DNA of 64,000 nucleotides from Coleofasciculus chthonoplastes F2-STO-03 (GTDB lineage Bacteria > Cyanobacteriota > Cyanobacteriia > Cyanobacteriales > Coleofasciculaceae), in NCBI GenBank assembly GCA_040222015.1, contig JAVJWO010000195.1, forward strand, positions 1-64,000, given 5' to 3'. A program made the position numbers and the translations under genes. This document shows, piece after piece, positions 1-10,805 of this stretch (positions are counted from its first letter, which is position 1; each line of letters opens with the position of its first letter). The notes below the pieces were generated by a model. That model did not search any database. It saw nothing but the letters and a program-made list of their open reading frames with translations, and was not told the DNA's origin.

Positions 1-147
1 ACAGGGAATAGGGAACAGGGAACAGGGAACAGGGAACAGGGAACAGGGAACAGGGAACAGGGAACAGGGAACAGGGAACAGGGAACAGGGAACAGGGAAC
101 AGGGAACAGGGAACAGGGAACAGGGAACAGGGAACAGGGAACAGGAA
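1..147. repeat. Heptamer tandem repeat (CAGGGAA)n, STRR-like, ~20 units, truncated by window edge
   Basis: Directly visible tandem 7-mer. Confidence 0.95.
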
Positions 148-199
148 ATTGTGAAGTTTTGGTAAGGAATTATTAGAATTGTCACCGATTTAATTAAAG

Positions 200-241
200 G
201 TAAAAATCGATACAATTGCCATCAGTACAGTAGGTTAATAT
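200..241 (+). promoter_or_regulatory. Putative NtcA-activated promoter: GTA-N8-TAC (200-213), 22 nt, then TAATAT -10 (236-241)
   Basis: GTAaaaatcgaTAC followed at exactly 22 nt by TA-N3-T, the canonical cyanobacterial NtcA promoter spacing; lies upstream of a urea/amide-sensor kinase. Confidence 0.6.
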
Positions 242-544
242 TCAAAGAGACATTGTGAAAAACAATAGTCAAATGTTTAGCATTTGCCTCAATCGTGTAT
301 TTGACCTATCGTTGCTTTATACAGCTTCATTGAATACCAGGGATTCGCGCTCAGGGTGTTTGGCTTTTGTCACTTCCCCAGGTTTTAATTAAACAGGGAA
401 GAATTGAGAAATCTTAAACGGAATAATTAATCCAGATTGCAATAGAATGATTAATTGATCACGTCAACAACAAAAAGCAACGGTTAAAGGATTATTGGAC
501 AGTAGAGAGGCATTTAACGGGAGAACATTTCGGGAACATCAGTA

Positions 545-3331
545 ATGAGCGAATTCAACCAGTCAGTGATCAGATCTGGTGCTGCGATCCGTGTTGGTAT
601 TTTACATTCTTTAAGCGGCACGATGGCGATTAGCGAAGCCTCGTTAAAGGATGCGGAACTGATGGCGATCGCGGAAATTAATCAAGCGGGTGGTGTCTTA
701 GGACATCGAATTGAACCCGTTATCGAAGATGGCGCATCCCAATCGGCGACATTTGCCCTTAAAGCTAGAAAGCTGATTGAACAGGATCAGGTTGCCACAA
801 TCTTTGGCGGGTGGACGTCTGCGAGTCGCAAAGCGGTTGTACCCATCTTAGAAGAACTCAACGCCCTGATGTGGTATCCGGTTGAATATGAAGGACTCGA
901 ATGTTCTCGCCACATTTTTTATACGGGGATTTGTCCGAATCAACAAGTCGGTCCAGCGGTGGATTGGTTGTTGAACCATAAGGGAAAACGTTTTTATCTA
1001 ATTGGATCTGATTATGTTTTTCCGCGAACCGCCAACAAGTTAATTAAGGCGCAACTTAAACAGCAAGGGGGGAGTTTAGCGGGGGAAGAATATGTTCCGT
1101 TAGGGATGACAGAGTTTGGCGATTTGATCGCTAGAATTAAAGAAGCTAAACCGGAGGTAGTCTTTAATACCCTGAATGGGGACAGTAATTTAGCGTTTTA
1201 TCAACAGTACCAAGAAGCCGGAATCACGGCAGCGGAGATTCCTATCTTAGCGGTGAGTGTCGCTGAAGAGGAACTGCGGCGAATTGGAGGGAGTATCGCA
1301 GCAGGTCATTATGCCAGTTGGAGTTATTTTCAGAGTATTAATACCCCGAAAAACCGCGAATTTGTCCAGAATTTTCAGGCACATTATGGTCAAGATCGAG
1401 TCACCAGTGATCCGATTGAGTCGGCGTATGTCCAGGTTTATCTCTGGAAACAAGCGGTAGAAAAAGCGGGTTGCTTTGATGTGGAATCATTGCGAGAAGC
1501 GGCGTATGGGCAAACCTTTGAAGCGCCGGGAGGGAAGATTCGGATTGAGACGAATAACCATTTGAGCAAACATTGCCGAATTGGTAAGATTTTGGAGAGT
1601 GGTCAATTTGAAATTGTCTTTACCAGTGTCGGACGCCTTAAACCTCAGCCTTGGTTGGGAATTGAAAAGTTAAGTAATCAGATCTCACCAGTGGTTATTG
1701 ATATGCTGGCAGAGGTTTCCCAATCAATTCAATATAACTGCCAACTGGAACAAAAGTCCCGTGAACTAGAAGCGGCGATGGCGCAACTGGTGACGACGAA
1801 TGAAAAGTTGCAACGCACTCAAGACCAATTATTGCAAGCCGAAGCCCAATTTCGCGAGTTACAAGATCAAGAAAAACTGTTGAAGCGTCGCTTGTCGAGT
1901 CAAATTCGCAGTTCGTTGGAATTAGAACAGATTTTGAAGACGGCGGTGAGGGAAATCTGTAGTTTATTACATATCGATCGCTGTCAGTTTTTGTGGTATC
2001 ATACTTACGGTAGTCTGCCTCGCTTTGAACCCATGGAAGTGGCGGGAGAGTTGAGTGAGAATAAGGGAGTGCAATGGAACTCGGCGGACGAACTTTTGCC
2101 AGATTTCCCGTCAATGATTCAGCAGCAATCGTTGCTACGGATTGACGATATTGCCAGCGATAGTCAGCTTAAGGGTAAGACTCGCGATCGCTTCCTGGAT
2201 GATGGACTGCAAGCTTTGCTAATTGTACCCCTACAAACTCGCAGCAATAAAATTGGCGTGGTGGTTTGTGAACATTATCAGGAGAGTCGCTACTGGAGTG
2301 AACAGGAGGTTGAATTAATTGTTTCAGTAGTTGATCAACTATCGAGTGCGATTGATCAAGCTGAATTGTATGCCCATAGTCGCACAACCGCAGCCTTAGC
2401 CACCGCCCAAGCCGAACAACTGAAGCAAGCGTTGCATGATTTAAAAGCCTATCAAGCGCAGTTAGTGCAGACGGAAAAAATGTCTACATTAGGGACATTA
2501 GTCGCCGGGGTAGCCCATGAAATTAATAACCCTACCAGTTTTATTTACGGTAATCTTCACTATGCCAAAGAATACACCGAAGATTTATTAGAAATGCTGC
2601 GGTTGTATCAAGAGTATTATCCTGAACCTGCACCCGAAATTCAAGATCACGCCCAAGCGATTGAGTTAGAGTTTCTGCTCAAAGACTTGCCTAAAACTCT
2701 GGGTTCCATGGAGATTGGGGCGGAACGGATTCGTCATTTGGTATTGAGTTTGCGGAATTTCTCGCGTTTGGATCAAGCCCAAATGCAACCCATGGATATT
2801 CGTGAGGGGATGGAGAGTACCTTACTGTTATTGCGGAATCGACTGAAAGGAAATGGTCACAATCCAGAGATTGAATTAGTGAAAGAGTATGGGGAGTTAC
2901 CCTTGGTTGAGTGCTATCCGTCGCAGCTTAATCAAGTGTTTATGAATCTCCTGGGTAATGCAATTGATGCGTTAGAGGAAGTTGTCGCCCGGAATGAGAC
3001 AAATTTTTCGCCGATGATTCGGATTCAGTCAGAAGCGCCCTCGGCTGATTATATTCGGGTGAGAATTAGTGATAATGGCTCAGGGATGACGGATGATGTG
3101 AAGTTAAAGTTATTTGATCCGTTTTTTACGACTAAGCCGATTGGTAAGGGGACGGGTTTAGGACTCTCGATTAGTTATCAAATTGTTGTAGATAAGCATA
3201 AGGGAATTTTGCAATGTAACTCTACTCCTAGACAAGGAACAGAGTTTATTATTGAGATTCCGGTGCGACAAAATTGTAAAGTTGCCGTGAGTCAGGAGAT
3301 GAATATCCGACTGAAGGCTCAAACCCATTAA
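545..3331 (+). CDS. UrtA/AmiC-like (urea/amide-binding) domain - coiled coil - GAF - histidine kinase fusion
   Basis: N-term [45 protein letters not shown] as in UrtA; GAF end [16 protein letters not shown]-box VAHEINNP, N-box [28 protein letters not shown]; no signal peptide or TM. Confidence 0.9.
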
Positions 3332-3344
3332 GGAGTTGAACGGG

Positions 3345-3430
3345 ATATGATAGAACGGGGCGGGGCGTATGATAGAACGGGGCGGTTAAAACCGCAGCTA
3401 CACAAACTAAACCCGCCTGCGCGGGTTTCA
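3345..3430. repeat. Dispersed palindromic repeat with hairpin AAACCCGC-ctgc-GCGGGTTT, preceded by a short direct duplication (TATGATAGAACGGGGCGG x2)
   Basis: Inverted repeat 3409-3428; direct repeat visible just downstream of the kinase stop. Confidence 0.6.
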
Positions 3431-4945
3431 TCTAGCTGGAGGTTCCCGGAAGTGCGATCACATTTCTGGTGACAAATCCAGGATTAACCATCTGTAGGGG
3501 CGACCCGCTTGCACTAATTAAAAACTCCCATCCGTTCAATTAGGTTGGGTCGCCCTCTGCTATTAATTGGCTAATTAATGCTAAAACAACAGCAGCATTT
3601 CAGTTTTACTAGCTGAGTGATTTCCTATTCTTGATGATTCTCTGTGGAGTTGCACTGAATTAAACTTTCAGTTGCCTTGCTCCCCATTGACTAACTTAGG
3701 AAATATCAGCGTTTAAATGGTTTGCTGCTGTTGTTTTTAGATGAGACAGATTGATTGATTTAGCCAGCGTTTTTACCTCTTCTTTTGAATCTAAACGTTG
3801 CTTTTGTATCTGTCTGATGAAGCTTTATTTGCTTCATAGTTCTACTTTAGCACCTTTGATTGAAAGGACAAGGGAATGATACGTAAGTTTACATTAATCG
3901 GGAAAAGGTTAAGTTCGATTAATTCTTCCCCGATTCAGACCTCTCGGTGGACATTCTCAGGAGTGCGATCGCGTTCCTTTTTAGAAATGCCAGATTAACC
4001 ACCTGTAGGGGCGACCCGCTTGCACTAATTAAAAACTCCCATCCGTTTAATTGGGTCGGGTCGCCCTCTCCTATTAATTGGGCGGAAATGCTAAAACAAC
4101 AGCAGCATTTCAGTTTTACTAGCCGAGTGATTTCCTCTTCTTGATGATTCTCTGTGGAGTTGCACTGAATTAAACTTTCAGTTGCCTTGCTCCCCATTGA
4201 CTAGCTTAGGAAATATCAGCGTTTAAATGGCTTGCTGCTGCTGTTTTTAGATGAGACAGATTGATTGATTTAGCCAGCGTTTTTACCTCTTCTTTTGAAT
4301 CTAAACGTTGCTTTTGTATCTGTCCGGTGAAGCTTTATTCGCTTCATAGTTCTACTTTAGCACCTTTGATTGAAAGGACAAGGGAATGATACGTAAGTTT
4401 ACATTAATCGGGAAAAGGTTGAGTTAGATTAATGCTTCCCCTATTCAGACCTCTAGGTGGACATTCCCAGGAGTGCGATCGCATTCCTTTTTAGAAAGGC
4501 AAGATTAACCACCTGCAGGGGCAACCCGCTTGCATCAATTAACAATCTCCAATCCATTTAATTGGGTCGGGTCGCCCTTTTCTATTAATTGGCTAATTAA
4601 TGCTAAAACAACAGCAGCACGTCCGATCGACTTGCTGAGTGATTTCCTTCTTTTAGTAATTCTATCTGGAGTTGCACTGAATTGAAGTTTCAGTAGCCTT
4701 GCTCCCTATTAACTAGCTTAGGAAATATCAGCGTCTAAATGGTTTGCTGCTGTTGTTTTTAGATGAGACAGATTAATTGATTTAGCCAGCGTTTTTACCT
4801 CTTCTTTTGAATCTAAACGTTGCTTTTTTATCTGTCCGGTGAAGCTTTATTTGCTTCATACTTTTACTTTACCACTCTCAAGTTGAAAGACAAGGAAATG
4901 ACATAGAAGTTAACATTTGTCCGAGAAATATTAAGTTAAGTTACG
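3431..4945. repeat. Three tandem ~510-bp units, each extensively self-complementary (candidate structured ncRNA array)
   Basis: Anchor CTG(T/C)AGGGGC at 3492, 4003, 4513 (period 511/510); units 1 and 2 nearly identical, unit 3 more diverged; nested inverted repeats in every unit. Confidence 0.95.
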
Positions 4946-5210
4946 ATTGTGGGCAACGATTGATGAGCAGGTGATCATCCTGAACCAGTCGAAAACAGGA
5001 TCAAATTGAACGATTGAGTCTCTGAATTAAGTGAAAATACTTAGAGACTATGTGCAGAACACATAATTTGTGGAGTGAGCTAAACTGCCTCTACTGACGC
5101 TGTACTTGCTGTATACCGATCGCGACTGAACTGGCAAGTGATTAGATAATGGGGTTAGTATAGCAAAGGGTATTTTTACAAAAGTTCATTCTTTAGACTC
5201 AGAAATTTCC

Positions 5211-5960
5211 ATGACGGATAGGGTAACAACGATGTCCAACGATGTTGATGCGAAGACAGATACAGATATCGAGGCGAAGACAACAGAAAAAGAAGTCCGC
5301 CTACTGCTTTACTTGTGGGATATGGGAGGTTCGGATGTTAAGAGGGGTGAACTAACCAAGCGACTGAAACGGAAAAAGGAGACAGCTGCTGATTACCAGG
5401 AGAGTTATCAGCAGTTAGAAGAGAACGGTGCGATCGCGGTTTCTCGGTATAAGGTATCTCTGGTACAGCCGAAGGGATTTCAGATGCTGGAAGCGGGGTT
5501 AAAGAGTGAGGCGTTTAAATTTGAGAGTCAGATTGGCGCGAAAACCGCGAATGCGTTACTCAAATGGATTCGAGAACAAGCTATGTCGGCGGGTACTGTT
5601 GGTGATGGCGCGGTTGCTGCCGGGAAGACTGGGGAGAGTGCGATTGAGCAAAGCTCAGCGCCAAAGGCGATCGCGTCTTATGATCAGTTTAAGCAGGTGG
5701 CGCTGGATGTCTACAATCAGCTTAACCGCGACTATAACTTAGATGACTTAGTACCGATATATCGGATACGACGAACCATTGGCGATCGCGTCTCTCGTTC
5801 CCAGTTCAATGACTGGATGCTGGAAATGCAGGCGAATGACATCTTCCAGCTAATGGGGGGAGAGGTTTTAAACGTTACCCCTGATCAATTAGAAGACTCA
5901 ATTACTCCGCCAGTCGGCAAATTGCGTTACTTTGCCAAGCTTGTGAATGCTGAAGCCTAA
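5211..5960 (+). CDS. Hypothetical protein, probable N- and C-terminal winged-helix-like domains; first gene of ATPase/nuclease operon
   Basis: 249 aa; LLLYLWD..VKRGELTKRL..YQQLEENGAI and LVPIYRIRR..SRSQFNDWMLEMQ..IFQL patterns resemble wHTH; low-complexity linker between them. Confidence 0.75.
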   Translation: MTDRVTTMSNDVDAKTDTDIEAKTTEKEVRLLLYLWDMGGSDVKRGELTKRLKRKKETAADYQESYQQLEENGAIAVSRYKVSLVQPKGFQMLEAGLKSEAFKFESQIGAKTANALLKWIREQAMSAGTVGDGAVAAGKTGESAIEQSSAPKAIASYDQFKQVALDVYNQLNRDYNLDDLVPIYRIRRTIGDRVSRSQFNDWMLEMQANDIFQLMGGEVLNVTPDQLEDSITPPVGKLRYFAKLVNAEA

Positions 5961-5993
5961 TTGAAACCGCTTGTTGTTTGTTCCTTCACCTGA

Positions 5994-8009
5994 ATGATCA
6001 TGACTAATTTATCTGTTTCACCGATTGAAGAAATCAACACCGCCATCCAAGACTACAATCCGTTCAACAGTGCAGCCATTGATAAAGTCCAAAGTGTTTG
6101 GGGTAAAGGATTCCCGGATTTGAATACTCTCAATGCTCATGCTTCTCAAAAAGTCTTGGAGATAATCAAGCAGGTTAAAACCAGCTCAGATAGTAAGGAT
6201 AAGGTAGCCACTTTAGTTGTGACTGGCGATCCGGGTTCAGGGAAAACTCAACTCATTGGTCGCCTGCGCCGTCGTGTCATTGGTGATGGTAGTGCTGTAT
6301 TTATCTATGTTAACACTGGCAAGTATGGTAACTTAAATCTGTTGAGACATCAATTTCTGCAAACGTTGATCGAGAACTTGGCGCGAGTTGGCAGTCAAGA
6401 AGTTACACAATGGCAGGAAGTGGCGGCGGCTATGGCAAATGCCAGTAATTCCAGTGGTCAGAAAACTGCCGCAGCAACAATAGTTAAGAATTTTGATAAA
6501 GCCTATGCCAAAGCTTTACAAAATCACCAAAATCTACTCAAAAAATTGAGTACCCAGATTCTCAAAATCAAGCCGGATGCTGATCCTTATATTCTCAGGG
6601 CGATTTTGTGGACTCTTTCAGAAATGTACGCCCCCTATGCTATTGAATGGTTAGCTGGTAATGAGCTAGATCAAGAAACGGCTAACTCTATGGGTTTGCC
6701 AACTAATGCTGGTAAGACATCTCAAGAACAAGAAGCAGAAGCTCTGGGTAATATACAACAAATCTTGCGGTTAGTTAGTGACCATAAACCTGTGCTGATT
6801 TGTTTTGATGAATTGGAAACCCAAGGAATATTATCTGAAGATGGGTTTACGAAAGCACAGGTAATTGCTAGGTTAGTTAAAGACGTTTACGATAACCTCG
6901 AACAGTCAGGTATTGGCAAAGGTATTGTCATGTTGACGGTAATGTTCCAGTCAACTTGGAGTAAGGAAATAACCTTTTATACTGAAACTGTTAGCTCAGT
7001 AAAAGATCGGTTGTCAACAGCAACTCAAGGAAACCCAATAAGTTTAAAACCTCTAGATAGCCAATTCATTGTTGATTTAGTTGCCTTGTGGTTGCAAAAA
7101 GAGCTATATGATCCTCGTGATTTAAAACCTCATGATCCAGTTTATCCGTTTACAGAAAGCCAACTCAGGGATATCGGTAAAGGCAAGCCGACTGTACGGG
7201 AAACTTTAGATTGGTGTGCTAAGAATTATCGCCCCAATGTTCCTATATCACTAGAAGAGAGATTTAAAAGAGCTGTTAAAGCCTCGAAGGAGGCAGACCT
7301 TGGAGATTATTTAGAGGACAATGATAAAATTGCTGATGCTCTACGTTTTGGCTTTGAGCAGTTGATAGGTGAAACATTGGAAGGGGAAACATTAACCGGA
7401 CAAAAATTACGGCAACTAACAATTGAAAGCGTTGATACTGATATCAAAGTAGTCAACTCAAAGGCTCCTGCCAAGAATCTATCAAACCAAGGTTACATTA
7501 ATTTCAAGGTTGTTGGCAATGAAGATGACAAAAATTTTGTCATTGGTGTAGCAGTTATTCAAAAAGGCAACGCAGCTGCACTAGGCGCTGGATTAAAGCG
7601 CTTAACGGCATACGAACGGTTTGGTTTAACTCGCGGTTGTTTAGTTCGCTCGAAAAACAAAAAAATTAACAAGACGACAAACGCTTATAAGTTACTGGAA
7701 AAACTCACATCTCAGGCAAAGGGAGGAGAATGGGCGTATCTGGAAGCTGAACAGATTAGACCTCTGATTGACCTGTATTCTGTTTATCAAAACTGCGAGA
7801 CATATCAGCTTACTCAAAAGCAGGTGGCAGAATTCTCAAAACCCCAAATTTTAGAGAATCCACTACTGCGAGAAATCCTCAGCGATCCCTCTGGCGAAAT
7901 TGATGCAGAGACTATCGAAGATGAAGAACTCTTTGGAACGCTGTTCGACGAATCTAGTGCTGATGATACAGCCAATGATGACGACCTGAATGACCTATTC
8001 GTAGCATAG
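5994..8009 (+). CDS. P-loop NTPase (AAA+/STAND-like) with C-terminal domain and acidic tail
   Basis: Walker A GDPGSGKT, Walker B PVLICFDELE, YPFT..L motif; tail ADDTANDDDLNDLF; 33 bp after previous gene. Confidence 0.85.
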   Translation: MIMTNLSVSPIEEINTAIQDYNPFNSAAIDKVQSVWGKGFPDLNTLNAHASQKVLEIIKQVKTSSDSKDKVATLVVTGDPGSGKTQLIGRLRRRVIGDGSAVFIYVNTGKYGNLNLLRHQFLQTLIENLARVGSQEVTQWQEVAAAMANASNSSGQKTAAATIVKNFDKAYAKALQNHQNLLKKLSTQILKIKPDADPYILRAILWTLSEMYAPYAIEWLAGNELDQETANSMGLPTNAGKTSQEQEAEALGNIQQILRLVSDHKPVLICFDELETQGILSEDGFTKAQVIARLVKDVYDNLEQSGIGKGIVMLTVMFQSTWSKEITFYTETVSSVKDRLSTATQGNPISLKPLDSQFIVDLVALWLQKELYDPRDLKPHDPVYPFTESQLRDIGKGKPTVRETLDWCAKNYRPNVPISLEERFKRAVKASKEADLGDYLEDNDKIADALRFGFEQLIGETLEGETLTGQKLRQLTIESVDTDIKVVNSKAPAKNLSNQGYINFKVVGNEDDKNFVIGVAVIQKGNAAALGAGLKRLTAYERFGLTRGCLVRSKNKKINKTTNAYKLLEKLTSQAKGGEWAYLEAEQIRPLIDLYSVYQNCETYQLTQKQVAEFSKPQILENPLLREILSDPSGEIDAETIEDEELFGTLFDESSADDTANDDDLNDLFVA

Positions 8010-8020
8010 GAACATAAATT

Positions 8021-9463
8021 ATGCTGCCAATCGCCCTACGTCTACCTGCCCCAGATATTAAAGCCTTAATCGAAGGACGCTCAATTGCCATTATCCCTCG
8101 GATATTCGTCAATCCAGGACGACAATTTGCTCTCTATCCCTCAGATACCTCCACTAACGCTCTGCCTATCGAACAATATTATCGCTCAAATTTTATCCCC
8201 ACCGCCCAAAAAAGTCTGGCTGAACTCGGTTCTGAAACCGTTCTAATTAAAGCCTGGGCAAAATGCGAACGGTGTCAAGTCTTGGATGATTCCGAATCCC
8301 TTGATTTTCTATCTCAGCTAACTGTATGGACAAAAGCCGGATTAGAGCAAACTCGTGTAAAACGAGGTCATATTTTTTTAGCCTACCTGCGGGTTTATCG
8401 ACTCCCGCAACCGATGGAAATTCCGGTTCATCCGAGTCCCCGATTTATACCTCTCCCCCAACCTTTAACCGTGACTCAAAATACACCTGTTTTGAGTCAG
8501 ACATGCTTTGAACAGCGCTGTCGCCAGATGGAAGAACGACAGCCGCCTCAGCATCCAGAATTGGAAGAATTACAGAGTGCGATCGCGCTATTATCAAACC
8601 ATAATCTAGCGGCTAAAGAACTTGACCAAGATATCAAACAATTCTTGGGATGGAATAGCCAATCAATCGTGAGATTTGACTCTGATTTCATCTGGATTAA
8701 AACAATCGCCGATGTCGGCAACTCTAGCGATGGTCATCAATTTGAAAAACTGGTACGGAAAAGCTTACTAAAACTAGGATTTACCAACTCTAGAAATGAC
8801 CCCAAAGCCAGCCTAAATCCAGAAGCAACTGGTGGTGCTGGCGGGATTGACTTTTATGCAGATGCACCTTATCCCATCGTTGGCGAATGCAAAGCCACCA
8901 AAAGTGAAATAGTACCCAGTAAAACTCCGGGACAATTAATCCAACTGGGGAACAATCATCTCCAACAAGATTATGCTCCTTGTCTCAAACTCATTGTCGC
9001 CGCCGGTGAATTAACCCCAGATGCTTTACGAACAACTTTAAATAATCAGATTAGCGTGATTCGTCCAGAAACTCTCCAACATCTCGTAGAATTGCAAGCC
9101 CAATATAATGGTGCTATTGACTTGCTGAAACTCAAAGCCTGCTGGCAAAATGCTTATGGGTTAGCCGATGATAAAATTGAGCAATACCTAGTAAAAGTGC
9201 GTCAAGACATCGCCGTGCGATCGCACATCGTTCAATCTGTTAAATCCTTACAAGAAAATGCCAGGTTAGGCGAAGTGGAAGTTGGTCAAATTTATGGCAC
9301 GTATATCGGTTCGAGTCCGCCCAAACCCTTAATGCCAAATGAATTGCGTGATATTCTCATTGAACTATCCTCCCCCTTAATAGGCTACTTAGGGAGAAAT
9401 AAGGGTAATGAATCGAACAGCGATCGCTTCTATTTCCTGCGCGATTTACCCCAGATTCATTAA
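8021..9463 (+). CDS. DUF1802-like N-terminal domain fused to a PD-(D/E)XK restriction-endonuclease-like domain
   Basis: ALIEGRSIAII and LAYLRVYRLPQP..PVLS as in DUF1802; FEKLVRKSLLKLGF..GGAGGIDF..IVGECKAT is a Mrr-like catalytic motif; 11 bp after the ATPase. Confidence 0.8.
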   Translation: MLPIALRLPAPDIKALIEGRSIAIIPRIFVNPGRQFALYPSDTSTNALPIEQYYRSNFIPTAQKSLAELGSETVLIKAWAKCERCQVLDDSESLDFLSQLTVWTKAGLEQTRVKRGHIFLAYLRVYRLPQPMEIPVHPSPRFIPLPQPLTVTQNTPVLSQTCFEQRCRQMEERQPPQHPELEELQSAIALLSNHNLAAKELDQDIKQFLGWNSQSIVRFDSDFIWIKTIADVGNSSDGHQFEKLVRKSLLKLGFTNSRNDPKASLNPEATGGAGGIDFYADAPYPIVGECKATKSEIVPSKTPGQLIQLGNNHLQQDYAPCLKLIVAAGELTPDALRTTLNNQISVIRPETLQHLVELQAQYNGAIDLLKLKACWQNAYGLADDKIEQYLVKVRQDIAVRSHIVQSVKSLQENARLGEVEVGQIYGTYIGSSPPKPLMPNELRDILIELSSPLIGYLGRNKGNESNSDRFYFLRDLPQIH

Positions 9464-9515
9464 GATAAAAAAATCTTGTGTAAGTACAGATAGAGGATAG
9501 GCGTAAGTCTCCTAT

Positions 9516-10322
9516 CTAAACTCTAAAAGGGAAACTTCCATTTTCACAAAAGCCAGGGGTAAGAAAATGCAGAGTCGCCAAAACACCCAGAATCGCACTG
9601 ACAATTATACCTGTAGCAATTCGTTTAATTCGTACAAACTGGGCAAGCTGACTCGCCCAAATATATTCTCGGTGTTCTTGAAGTGGCAAGGGTGTATTGT
9701 TATCCGATGCAGCCAACCAAGCTGTTGCTTCCCACAGTTGTTTACCGTGTAGCAAATAGCTGTGATCCCGATCATGAGACACCCAATCCCGCCAGAGTCC
9801 ATAGAATTTAGTATGCAATCTGGCGTCTTCTGGATTAATATTGAGAGAATTCAATAATTTGGTTAAGCAAACCTCAAAATCCTCTTCGGGAGTAAAAAAC
9901 ATCCAGTTTATGGATCGCAAAGATAAGGGAACTGAATCAGGTTGCTCAATCACAATCGGGAAAATTCGTTTACCTTGACTTAAAGCATACTCTAACTCTT
10001 GACCACAAACCTTAGATATCGCTGAGTTAGGCGTTAGCATAAATAGAAAGTAATCCGAATCTTCAATCCCTCGCTTAATTTCCTCCCACCACTCAACCGC
10101 TGGTGGAATATCTTCCCAATCCACCCAGATTTCATAATTCGGAGATAGAGCCGCGTAGAGTTTTTCAACGAATACTTTGTCCTTGTGGGAGTAAGAGAAA
10201 AATAGCCTACTCTCACGCTCTTGAATGTCCGGTTTTCGCCAACTCTCTTTGAGTAAAAACAGCAGGCTTTTGAGAAAACGCGGGGGAGAAGAAGAAGGAC
10301 TTGGAGTTTGAATGCTAGTCAT
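9516..10322 (-). CDS. TIR (TIR_2-type) domain protein with C-terminal transmembrane helix
   Basis: LFFSYSHKD, WVDWEDIPP..W.EEI..GI, SKVCGQELEYA, SLRSINW; LLHGKQLWEATAW motif; hydrophobic IATGIIVSAILGVLATL; ATG at 10322 preferred over GTG at 10370. Confidence 0.85.
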   Translation of the reverse strand: MTSIQTPSPSSSPPRFLKSLLFLLKESWRKPDIQERESRLFFSYSHKDKVFVEKLYAALSPNYEIWVDWEDIPPAVEWWEEIKRGIEDSDYFLFMLTPNSAISKVCGQELEYALSQGKRIFPIVIEQPDSVPLSLRSINWMFFTPEEDFEVCLTKLLNSLNINPEDARLHTKFYGLWRDWVSHDRDHSYLLHGKQLWEATAWLAASDNNTPLPLQEHREYIWASQLAQFVRIKRIATGIIVSAILGVLATLHFLTPGFCENGSFPFRV

Positions 10323-10456
10323 TTGACATCCAGAAGTATACGATAAAGCTTGAATGATTGGATACTTCACCGCAACCCGTAAATTTTCCGGTTTTTGTTA
10401 AACTTTCTTTATGTTCTTGAGATAATAACTCGTGATGTATTAATTTTATCTAAGTT

Positions 10457-10805
10457 CAGGGAACAGGGAACAGGGAACAGGGAACGGTTTTCATCGCTTG
10501 AACCCTATTACCTGAAGGGGTGACAAGCTCGCGTCAAAGGTGTGGGGTATGGGGTGTGGGGAAAATCGGTAAGAAACACAAAAGCCCATAAGAGGAGATA
10601 GGGTAAGGAGCGAGCGCTCTTTCTGGCGAGCCAACGAATAAACAATTTTGGTGACTCAATAGGAGTGACTCCCTGAGTTTAGTTCAATTTTTCCCTACAC
10701 CCTACACCCTATACCCTACACCCTACACCCAGTTATGTAGGGTGGGTTAGGCGGGACTTAAAGTCAGGCAATAAACCTTTAATCGACTATCCGCCGTAAC
10801 CCACC
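10457..10805. repeat. Cluster of small repeats: (CAGGGAA)4, a ~190-bp unit bounded by inverted heptamer tracts (GGGGTGT.. / ..CCCTACA), and a GTAG REP-like palindrome
   Basis: Tracts at ~10457-10486, ~10539-10561, ~10693-10730; GTAGGGTGGGTTAGGCGG...CCGCCGTAACCCACC at ~10737-10805. Confidence 0.65.

Follow-up and report, generated by a model that had tools for sequence, protein, structure and literature searches.

A tandem array of PmgR1-family RNA genes in Coleofasciculus chthonoplastes and a candidate CUG-started reading frame

What do the three tandem units at positions 3431 to 4945 of this 64,000-nt stretch of the Coleofasciculus chthonoplastes F2-STO-03 genome (the window) encode, and how might their product work? 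The units start at 3431, 3942 and 4452, a spacing of 511 and 510 bp, and so are the three direct repeats of about 511 bp that an earlier note, made from the sequence alone, had described. The 300-nt cores of units 2 and 3 are 97% and 87% identical to that of unit 1. All the stems named in that note are found in the sequence, and unit 1 folds far better than its shuffled controls on either strand (z of -6.8 on the plus and -5.8 on the minus strand), with z values of -4.1 to -6.1 for the three cores on the minus strand.

Our comparative analysis indicates that the stretch is a tandem triplication of a gene for PmgR1 (Ncr0700)-family RNA, each copy with its own predicted promoter. The units are real, and the array belongs to a known family that is absent from Rfam. 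We give a probability of about 0.6 to the best explanation of the whole, namely triplicated PmgR1 genes on whose RNAs ribosomes likely start weakly at a conserved CUG. The interest of the array lies in an eight-copy expansion of the family and in a translation signal that can be tested.

Composite units and their relation to PmgR1

The genes and repeats discussed in this section are as follows.

3580 to 3837, minus strand: PmgR1-family RNA copy 1, about 258 nt, ends placed by homology (HMM score 298 bits, alignment to the L179 locus described below, covariation)
4090 to 4347, minus strand: PmgR1-family RNA copy 2, 97% identical to copy 1
4602 to 4859, minus strand: PmgR1-family RNA copy 3, 90% identical to copies 1 and 2
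3494 to 3555 (also 4005 to 4066 and 4515 to 4577), unstranded: REP-like GTAG hairpin, a dispersed repeat separate from the RNA
3965 to 3972 (also 4475 to 4482; degenerate at 3454 to 3461), unstranded: HIP1 site GCGATCGC, read from the sequence
545 to 3331, plus strand: flanking gene for a periplasmic-binding/GAF/histidine kinase protein, convergent with the RNAs
5211 to 5960, plus strand: flanking gene, divergent from copy 3, for a 249-aa protein that matches nothing in Pfam or NCBIfam

Each unit is a composite of a REP-like hairpin and a minus-strand RNA gene of about 258 nt. A REP is a repetitive extragenic palindrome, and the left hairpin resembles one in that it starts with GTAG, is rich in G+C and occurs as a hairpin in more than 100 genome copies, many of them intergenic. 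By BLAST, the GTAGGGGCGACCC hairpin (unit positions ~62-131) recurs throughout the genome, with 137 such hairpins, and long matches outside the genus cover unit positions ~152-465, excluding it. Since the hairpin recurs genome-wide and the matches outside the genus skip it, we regard it as a REP-like repeat that was duplicated along with the gene. The earlier note had counted the GGGCGACCC hairpin as part of the RNA, but it is this unrelated repeat. The pair that changes from T-A to T-G to C-G across the units is real, but it sits in the same left hairpin, read on the plus strand, and thus outside the conserved RNA. In contrast to REP elements, no partner transposase was identified for the hairpin, because none of six examined Y1_Tnp loci (of 17 Y1_Tnp matches) had the repeat nearby. 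The HIP1 sites noted near the left boundary of each unit are present at 3965, 4475 and, in degenerate form, 3454. Because the genome holds 6037 HIP1 sites, one duplicated site per unit has little meaning.

Just left of unit 1, at 3346-3428, lie a 22-nt direct repeat pair and a AAACCCGCCTGCGCGGGTTT palindrome, whose core occurs 16 times in the genome. This region contains a minus-strand terminator-like site that could stop read-through, and it also gives a weak CRISPR-DR28 match. Farther left, the 545-3331 gene encodes a 928-aa fusion of Peripla_BP_5, GAF and histidine kinase domains, possibly a sensor with urea or an amide as putative ligand. To the right, at 5211-9463 and 9516-10370, a 249-aa protein, a 671-aa P-loop ATPase and a DUF1802 fusion stand in a row and are followed by an opposite-strand TIR-domain gene. 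The ATPase has weak matches to the Sll1717 family and to DS41 anti-phage proteins, below cut-off, and this group of genes could be a defence island. Heptamer repeats at 1-145 (ACAGGGA, 20.7 times), 10457-10485 (CAGGGAA, 4 times) and 10693-10730 (CCCTACA, 5 times) are presumably typical cyanobacterial short tandem repeats.

The RNAs of the three units almost certainly belong to the PmgR1 (Ncr0700/DsiR1) family, judging from sequence homology along nearly the whole RNA. PmgR1 was reportedly first described by de Porcellinis et al. in 2016, in Synechocystis sp. PCC 6803. The supplement of Kopf and Hess (2015) prints the Synechocystis RNA ncr0700/dsiR1, later named PmgR1 (PMC6596454), and the sequence as printed there has the family motifs in the same order. 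A pattern search located the printed stretch in one of our genomes (G216), at a locus that we call L179, which agrees with 251 printed ncr0700 bases when compared by eye. Against a profile whose seeds were the window and its BLAST relatives alone, and which was built without L179, the locus reaches 46.9 bits (E = 4.7e-12) over profile positions 10-306 of 318. A larger profile, also built without it, gives 73.9 bits, although the overall identity of the window copies to L179 is only ~50%. What the earlier note took for a new kind of RNA is, on these scores, a member of the PmgR1 family.

Homology also revises the predicted size. The 5' end of the printed ncr0700 aligns with position 3837, and the RNAs therefore run from about 3837 to 3580, 4347 to 4090 and 4859 to 4602. 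The predicted length of 258 nt, with ends placed by homology, fits a free-standing transcript of ~250-290 nt with its own promoter and replaces the 350-400 nt proposed earlier. A comparison with Rfam, run on window positions 1-10000, returned no match for the RNA; the sole match was a sub-threshold CRISPR-DR28 hit (E = 0.42) on the unrelated palindrome. PmgR1 has no Rfam model. Two Nostoc sRNAs, 2462444f (258 nt) and 268249f, were considered as abundant candidates of fitting size, and we rejected them because their printed sequences are unlike the family. The supplements of the paper that prints them held no member when searched with 11 family motifs, and a search of the full-text literature with five family motifs gave only unrelated papers among the matches listed.

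The genome contains eight copies of the family, the three in tandem and five dispersed paralogues found as profile matches:

C197:7678-8016
C203:8232-8530
C46:48759-49076
C42:2256-2590
C181:3928-4291

The dispersed paralogues are divergent (53-64% alike). Several of them have stronger Shine-Dalgarno (SD)-like loops (GGAGG), and the one on C181 is without the CUG. Homologues elsewhere were scored by profile HMMs. Among named genomes, a pattern scan picked out 122 loci, 117 of which score with the core profile; their titles are nearly all cyanobacterial (Nostocales, Coleofasciculaceae, Leptolyngbyaceae and others), and the window copies are equalled in score by named Coleofasciculus records. By BLAST, a Nostocales copy matches 58 of 251 genomes of the phylum and none of 107 genomes in the largest family sampled. 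Other genera also have two or three copies in tandem (L017, L049, L066, L084, L086 and L132), and such arrays show that the gene dosage of PmgR1 varies widely among cyanobacteria. That PmgR1 is widely conserved was already known, since a 2026 screen counted, in the part cited here, 34 PmgR1 homology hits in its own search regions (PMC12873609).

Several loci have unusual arrangements. At L169 three copies stand in tandem; their loops are much longer than usual and their rods contain internal duplications, but the SD-like motif and the CUG are retained. In related genera (L012, L014, L015, L016 and L023), a cupin gene and/or a small unnamed ORF close to ssb has a copy on either side, and some of these copies face each other. 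A full-length, unannotated member at L158:2889-3266, on Nostoc plasmid NZ_AP025733.1, is the sole plasmid copy found, and viral contigs and phages yielded none. The PmgR1 locus at L179 lies upstream of a transposase-like ORF and back to back with two genes that we take to resemble hox hydrogenase subunits.

Among 119 copies examined, the downstream ORF is on the same strand in 75 and on the opposite strand in 34 (34/109) and belongs to many families. Neighbours as variable as these argue against a cis-acting leader. The commonest same-strand downstream gene (L099:1483-2250 and 34 relatives, in Nostocales and others) encodes a ~256-aa protein matched by neither Pfam nor NCBIfam, often begins 7-75 nt from the RNA and is a possible read-through partner.

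Fold, promoter and expression of the RNA

The alignment supplies a covariation-supported structure for PmgR1. The consensus from 73 homologues has 50 pairs, comprising a 5' hairpin, helices P2 and P3 around a large loop, and a 3' rod of six helices:

3581 to 3737, minus strand: 3' rod of copy 1 with its internal loops, central bubble and U-rich terminator-like tail, from alignment and covariation

In this set 93% of the cells are paired, compared with 37-47% in slid controls, and none of 500 shuffles reached this level. Two-sided changes occur in 23 of the 50 pairs, all of them within the rod, whereas the 5' helices are nearly invariant in sequence. The conserved secondary structure of PmgR1/Ncr0700 is therefore present, and the covariation that the earlier note had proposed to look for resides in the 3' rod. 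The coding strand is fixed as minus because G-U pairs outnumber A-C mismatches there by 225 to 49 over the 73 homologues. This bears out the earlier proposal of a structured minus-strand RNA, as does a TGn-TAnnnT element before the RNA in 89 of 98 copies.

That element and a second conserved box define the predicted promoter:

3844 to 3852, minus strand: extended -10 TGC-TAAAGT of copy 1 (in copies 2 and 3 the hexamer lies at 4354 to 4359 and 4866 to 4871)
3878 to 3895, unstranded: conserved upstream box of copy 1, matching the HLR1 (RpaB) consensus at 14 of 16 positions and centred at -49.5; RpaB is the putative binding factor
4388 to 4405: upstream box of copy 2, HLR1 14 of 16
4900 to 4917: upstream box of copy 3, HLR1 11 of 16

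We derived the promoter from comparative alignment; a generic promoter scan gave no sigma-70 sites. In the dereplicated set, TGn-TAnnnT lies 7-8 nt upstream of the 5' hairpin, and the second box begins 56-58 nt upstream of it in 88 of 98 copies. Alignment to the 5' end of the printed Synechocystis ncr0700 makes TAAAGT (3849-3844) the -10 hexamer and places the start near 3837. The TATCAT/TGTCAT sequence that had been read as the -10 belongs instead to the upstream box, at about -41 to -58.

The upstream box provides a candidate light-responsive element for PmgR1. HLR1 matches of at least 11 of 16 occur in 45 of 102 family promoters, compared with 2 of 102 at a control position, although a forward-strand peak at -45.5 scores nearly as high as the match at -49.5. 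According to the cited part of the RpaB regulon paper, the HLR1 consensus is a repeat and its activating position in low light is -51 (PMC6525291); ncr0700 is not mentioned in the main text of that paper. Control of the RNA promoter by RpaB is plausible on these grounds. An NtcA box was rejected, because its TAC half is not conserved.

Sequencing runs hint that the units are transcribed. Twenty runs contain part of the stretch, 16 of them recorded as RNA, and of 8 runs compared, 7 RNA runs from 5 studies have contigs on the units. The deepest contig pieces fall inside the predicted RNA (X2 142-225, X4 272-335), and shallower pieces bridge copies. An important caveat is that these data are contigs without strand, level, condition or ends, from runs chosen for holding the stretch, and that run X11 covers 30 of 30 bins, like DNA. 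For the same reason of selection, the absence of RNA contigs on the flanking genes is no evidence. Low-depth contigs at 3754-4283 bridge the promoter, the REP-like hairpin and the next copy, which could represent read-through or library DNA.

In Synechocystis, PmgR1 is the strongest transcript and peaks in the dark, according to the part cited (PMC4195498). It is linked to photomixotrophic growth and glycogen control and is cut by RNase E, and the passages cited state that its targets and mechanism are unknown (PMC8682795); another source, cited in part, ties it to PmgA and glycogen (PMC12831587). The window's genome has four RsbW-like kinases, none of them nameable as PmgA.

A Shine-Dalgarno-like loop and a CUG-started frame

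The 5' domain of each copy carries a motif that resembles a ribosome-binding site, followed by a short open frame:

3775 to 3781, minus strand: Shine-Dalgarno-like AAGAGGU in the loop of the 5' domain of copy 1 (copy 2, 4285 to 4291; copy 3, 4797 to 4803)
3696 to 3767, minus strand: CUG-started frame of 23 codons plus stop, copy 1; translation predicted
4206 to 4277, minus strand: the same frame in copy 2; translation predicted
4718 to 4789, minus strand: the same frame in copy 3; translation predicted

Ribosomes probably translate the RNA from the conserved CUG, to judge from the SD-like site, the CUG and the short stop-free frame that relatives keep. The loop motif is GAGGU in most copies, and 9 of 11 departures from it are changes to AGGAG or GGAGG that are scattered on the tree. 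A 5-mer SD core is present in 55 of 57 dereplicated copies compared with 7.8% of shuffles. We used exact 5-mer counts because a duplex-energy test separated poorly (-7.7 versus -6.2 kcal/mol in control windows). The pattern that recovered most homologues itself includes the loop and the CUG, and homologues are kin; among sequences found without the exact pattern, 57 of 59 have the SD-like loop. Weak opposite-strand self-matches of the rod, partial hits, hits containing N or lying at contig ends, and near-duplicates were dropped before counting, which reduced 231 hits to 146 in the profile set and 213 to 170 to 70 in the frame set.

The CUG lies at ribosome-binding distance downstream of the loop. 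In 51 of 52 copies its frame runs for at least 15 codons without a stop, compared with 29% and 40% for the other two frames. Among 170 distinct sequences, nucleotides 3-45 after the CUG contain no stop in frame and 160 and 143 (303) out of frame, whereas in three flanking control stretches stops are even across frames. In 67 dereplicated copies, ~11 in-frame stops were expected from column frequencies and none was observed. A 1-nt indel splits the family into two frames, with ~11 frame changes on the tree, and the stop-free frame tracks the CUG in both indel groups (1 versus 20/28 stops and 0 versus 9/13). The earlier statement that no long ORF is conserved holds in the sense that no ATG-started ORF is kept, yet this short CUG-started frame stays open family-wide. 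Two other frames were considered and rejected: an ATG at the extreme 5' end lacks conservation within the family, and a plus-strand hydrophobic ORF ending in GVALN, which the three units share, does not persist in homologues and is preceded by a stop in units 1 and 2.

Several observations weigh against translation. The CUG is paired in helix P3, and this pairing by itself could account for its conservation; 3 of 207 hits with the anchor motif are without the CUG; and the peptide, read in two frames, is not conserved past ~4 residues. PmgR1 was reported in fractions 5-12 of a Synechocystis gradient, with a peak at 8-9, and the part cited lists tmRNA, but not PmgR1, in the ribosome-rich fraction 20 (PMC12475003). 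The main text of a Synechocystis Ribo-seq preprint has no mention of PmgR or ncr0700 (10.64898/2025.12.20.695498). We found no statement of an SD-like loop, CUG or stop-free frame of PmgR1 in the printed literature searched or in the cited parts of the PMC articles and the preprint.

From these features we propose the following model. In low light or darkness the RNA would be transcribed under the control of the -50 box, probably bound by RpaB, and the extended -10. A 30S subunit would bind the exposed SD-like loop, but with the CUG locked in helix P3 initiation would be rare and would need melting. A ribosome reading the ~23 codons would then open two parts of the fold, namely the 3' arm of the 5' domain and, as far as the central bubble, the 5' strand of the rod. 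The choice between a folded, stable RNA and one exposed to RNase E would depend on translation as such, and not on the peptide. Folded RNA would accumulate when translation is low, as in the dark, and would act in trans on carbon storage, as Synechocystis PmgR1 does; extra copies would raise the dose.

That translation serves in this manner as a folding or turnover switch is a tentative suggestion, with odds somewhat below even. The broader proposal comes closer to even odds but still falls short of them: that PmgR1 across cyanobacteria is a translation sensor read by ribosomes, with an SD loop, a helix-locked CUG, a frame selected for length and not for sequence, and coupling to carbon storage, and that mat-forming filamentous cyanobacteria have amplified it to at least eight copies. 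If true, an RNA that has so far been regarded as non-coding, and that is more abundant than any other transcript of Synechocystis in the dark, would be read by ribosomes. A sharp prediction follows, namely initiation at one CUG and a function that depends on the SD, the CUG and the open frame.

Alternative readings and known systems

The same features could be explained without elongation. The exposed SD-like loop may act as a 30S decoy that ties up small subunits in the dark, consistent with its retention in 57 of the 59 copies that were recovered without the exact pattern, a start codon locked in a helix and the extreme abundance of PmgR1 in darkness (PMC4195498, cited in part). We consider this unlikely, because stop avoidance over 14 codons points to elongation, which a decoy would not need.

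The short peptide could instead be the effector, in which case PmgR1 would be a small-protein mRNA or a dual-function RNA. In its favor, 51 of 52 copies have a stop-free frame of 15 or more codons, and codons 2-4 are biased to F/L, N/H/K and L/F. However, the peptide is not conserved past ~4 residues: the two frames give unrelated sequences after residue 5, with ~11 switches, frame lengths range from 15 to more than 30 codons, and the window's three peptides differ mainly by replacement changes. An effector peptide is therefore improbable.

We also doubt that PmgR1 is a purely non-coding regulator, in which an invariant 5' domain pairs with mRNAs or titrates a protein and the SD and ORF signals are a by-product. 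The near-invariant 5' helices are what a recognition site would show, the mid-gradient sedimentation suggests a protein complex (PMC12475003, cited in part), and the literature, in the parts cited, treats PmgR1 as an sRNA (PMC8682795, PMC6596454). On the other hand, a seed or binding site does not predict the switching among SD sub-words, nor 0 versus 303 stops tied to the CUG frame.

Last, a 6S-like RNA polymerase mimic, a type I toxin-antitoxin repeat, a riboswitch or a MITE is very improbable, in spite of several copies per genome, a central bubble in the rod reminiscent of 6S RNA, and tandem ~500-bp repeats that we take to resemble LDR-type loci: RF00013 is not matched, six-frame translations give no conserved short hydrophobic ORF and the CUG peptide is polar, no fixed same-strand gene lies downstream (in the window this neighbor runs convergently, and in 34/109 cases it is on the opposite strand), viral contigs and phages are without copies, and, as for the MITE that the earlier note had named as a competing identity, the unit ends have no terminal inverted repeats and the dispersed copies are only 53-64% alike.

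Taken together, these observations favor PmgR1-family RNAs with a probable CUG start, and comparison with known systems places them as follows. The window copies and Synechocystis PmgR1 are alike in full-length homology, motif order, the position of the 5' end relative to the -10, size, and a two-domain fold that ends in GGGTGTTGTT/TGCTGTTGTT. They differ in that the window's genome has three tandem and five dispersed copies at ~50% identity, and in that the window copies are without a small extra hairpin between the two domains and are each followed by a REP-like hairpin. 6S RNA (RF00013) is likewise an abundant rod-shaped RNA with a central bubble, but the PmgR1-family RNA does not match its model and has an extra 5' domain with an SD-like loop, and the genome carries a separate 6S gene on C168. 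In leader-peptide and other translation-coupled switches, such as attenuator leaders, a short ORF melts overlapping helices when it is translated, and the sequence of the peptide matters little. The CUG-started frame would act on the PmgR1-family RNA in the same way. Unlike those leaders, this RNA starts its frame at a CUG and is the product of a free-standing gene, often with a convergent neighbor, and so has no fixed downstream gene to control.
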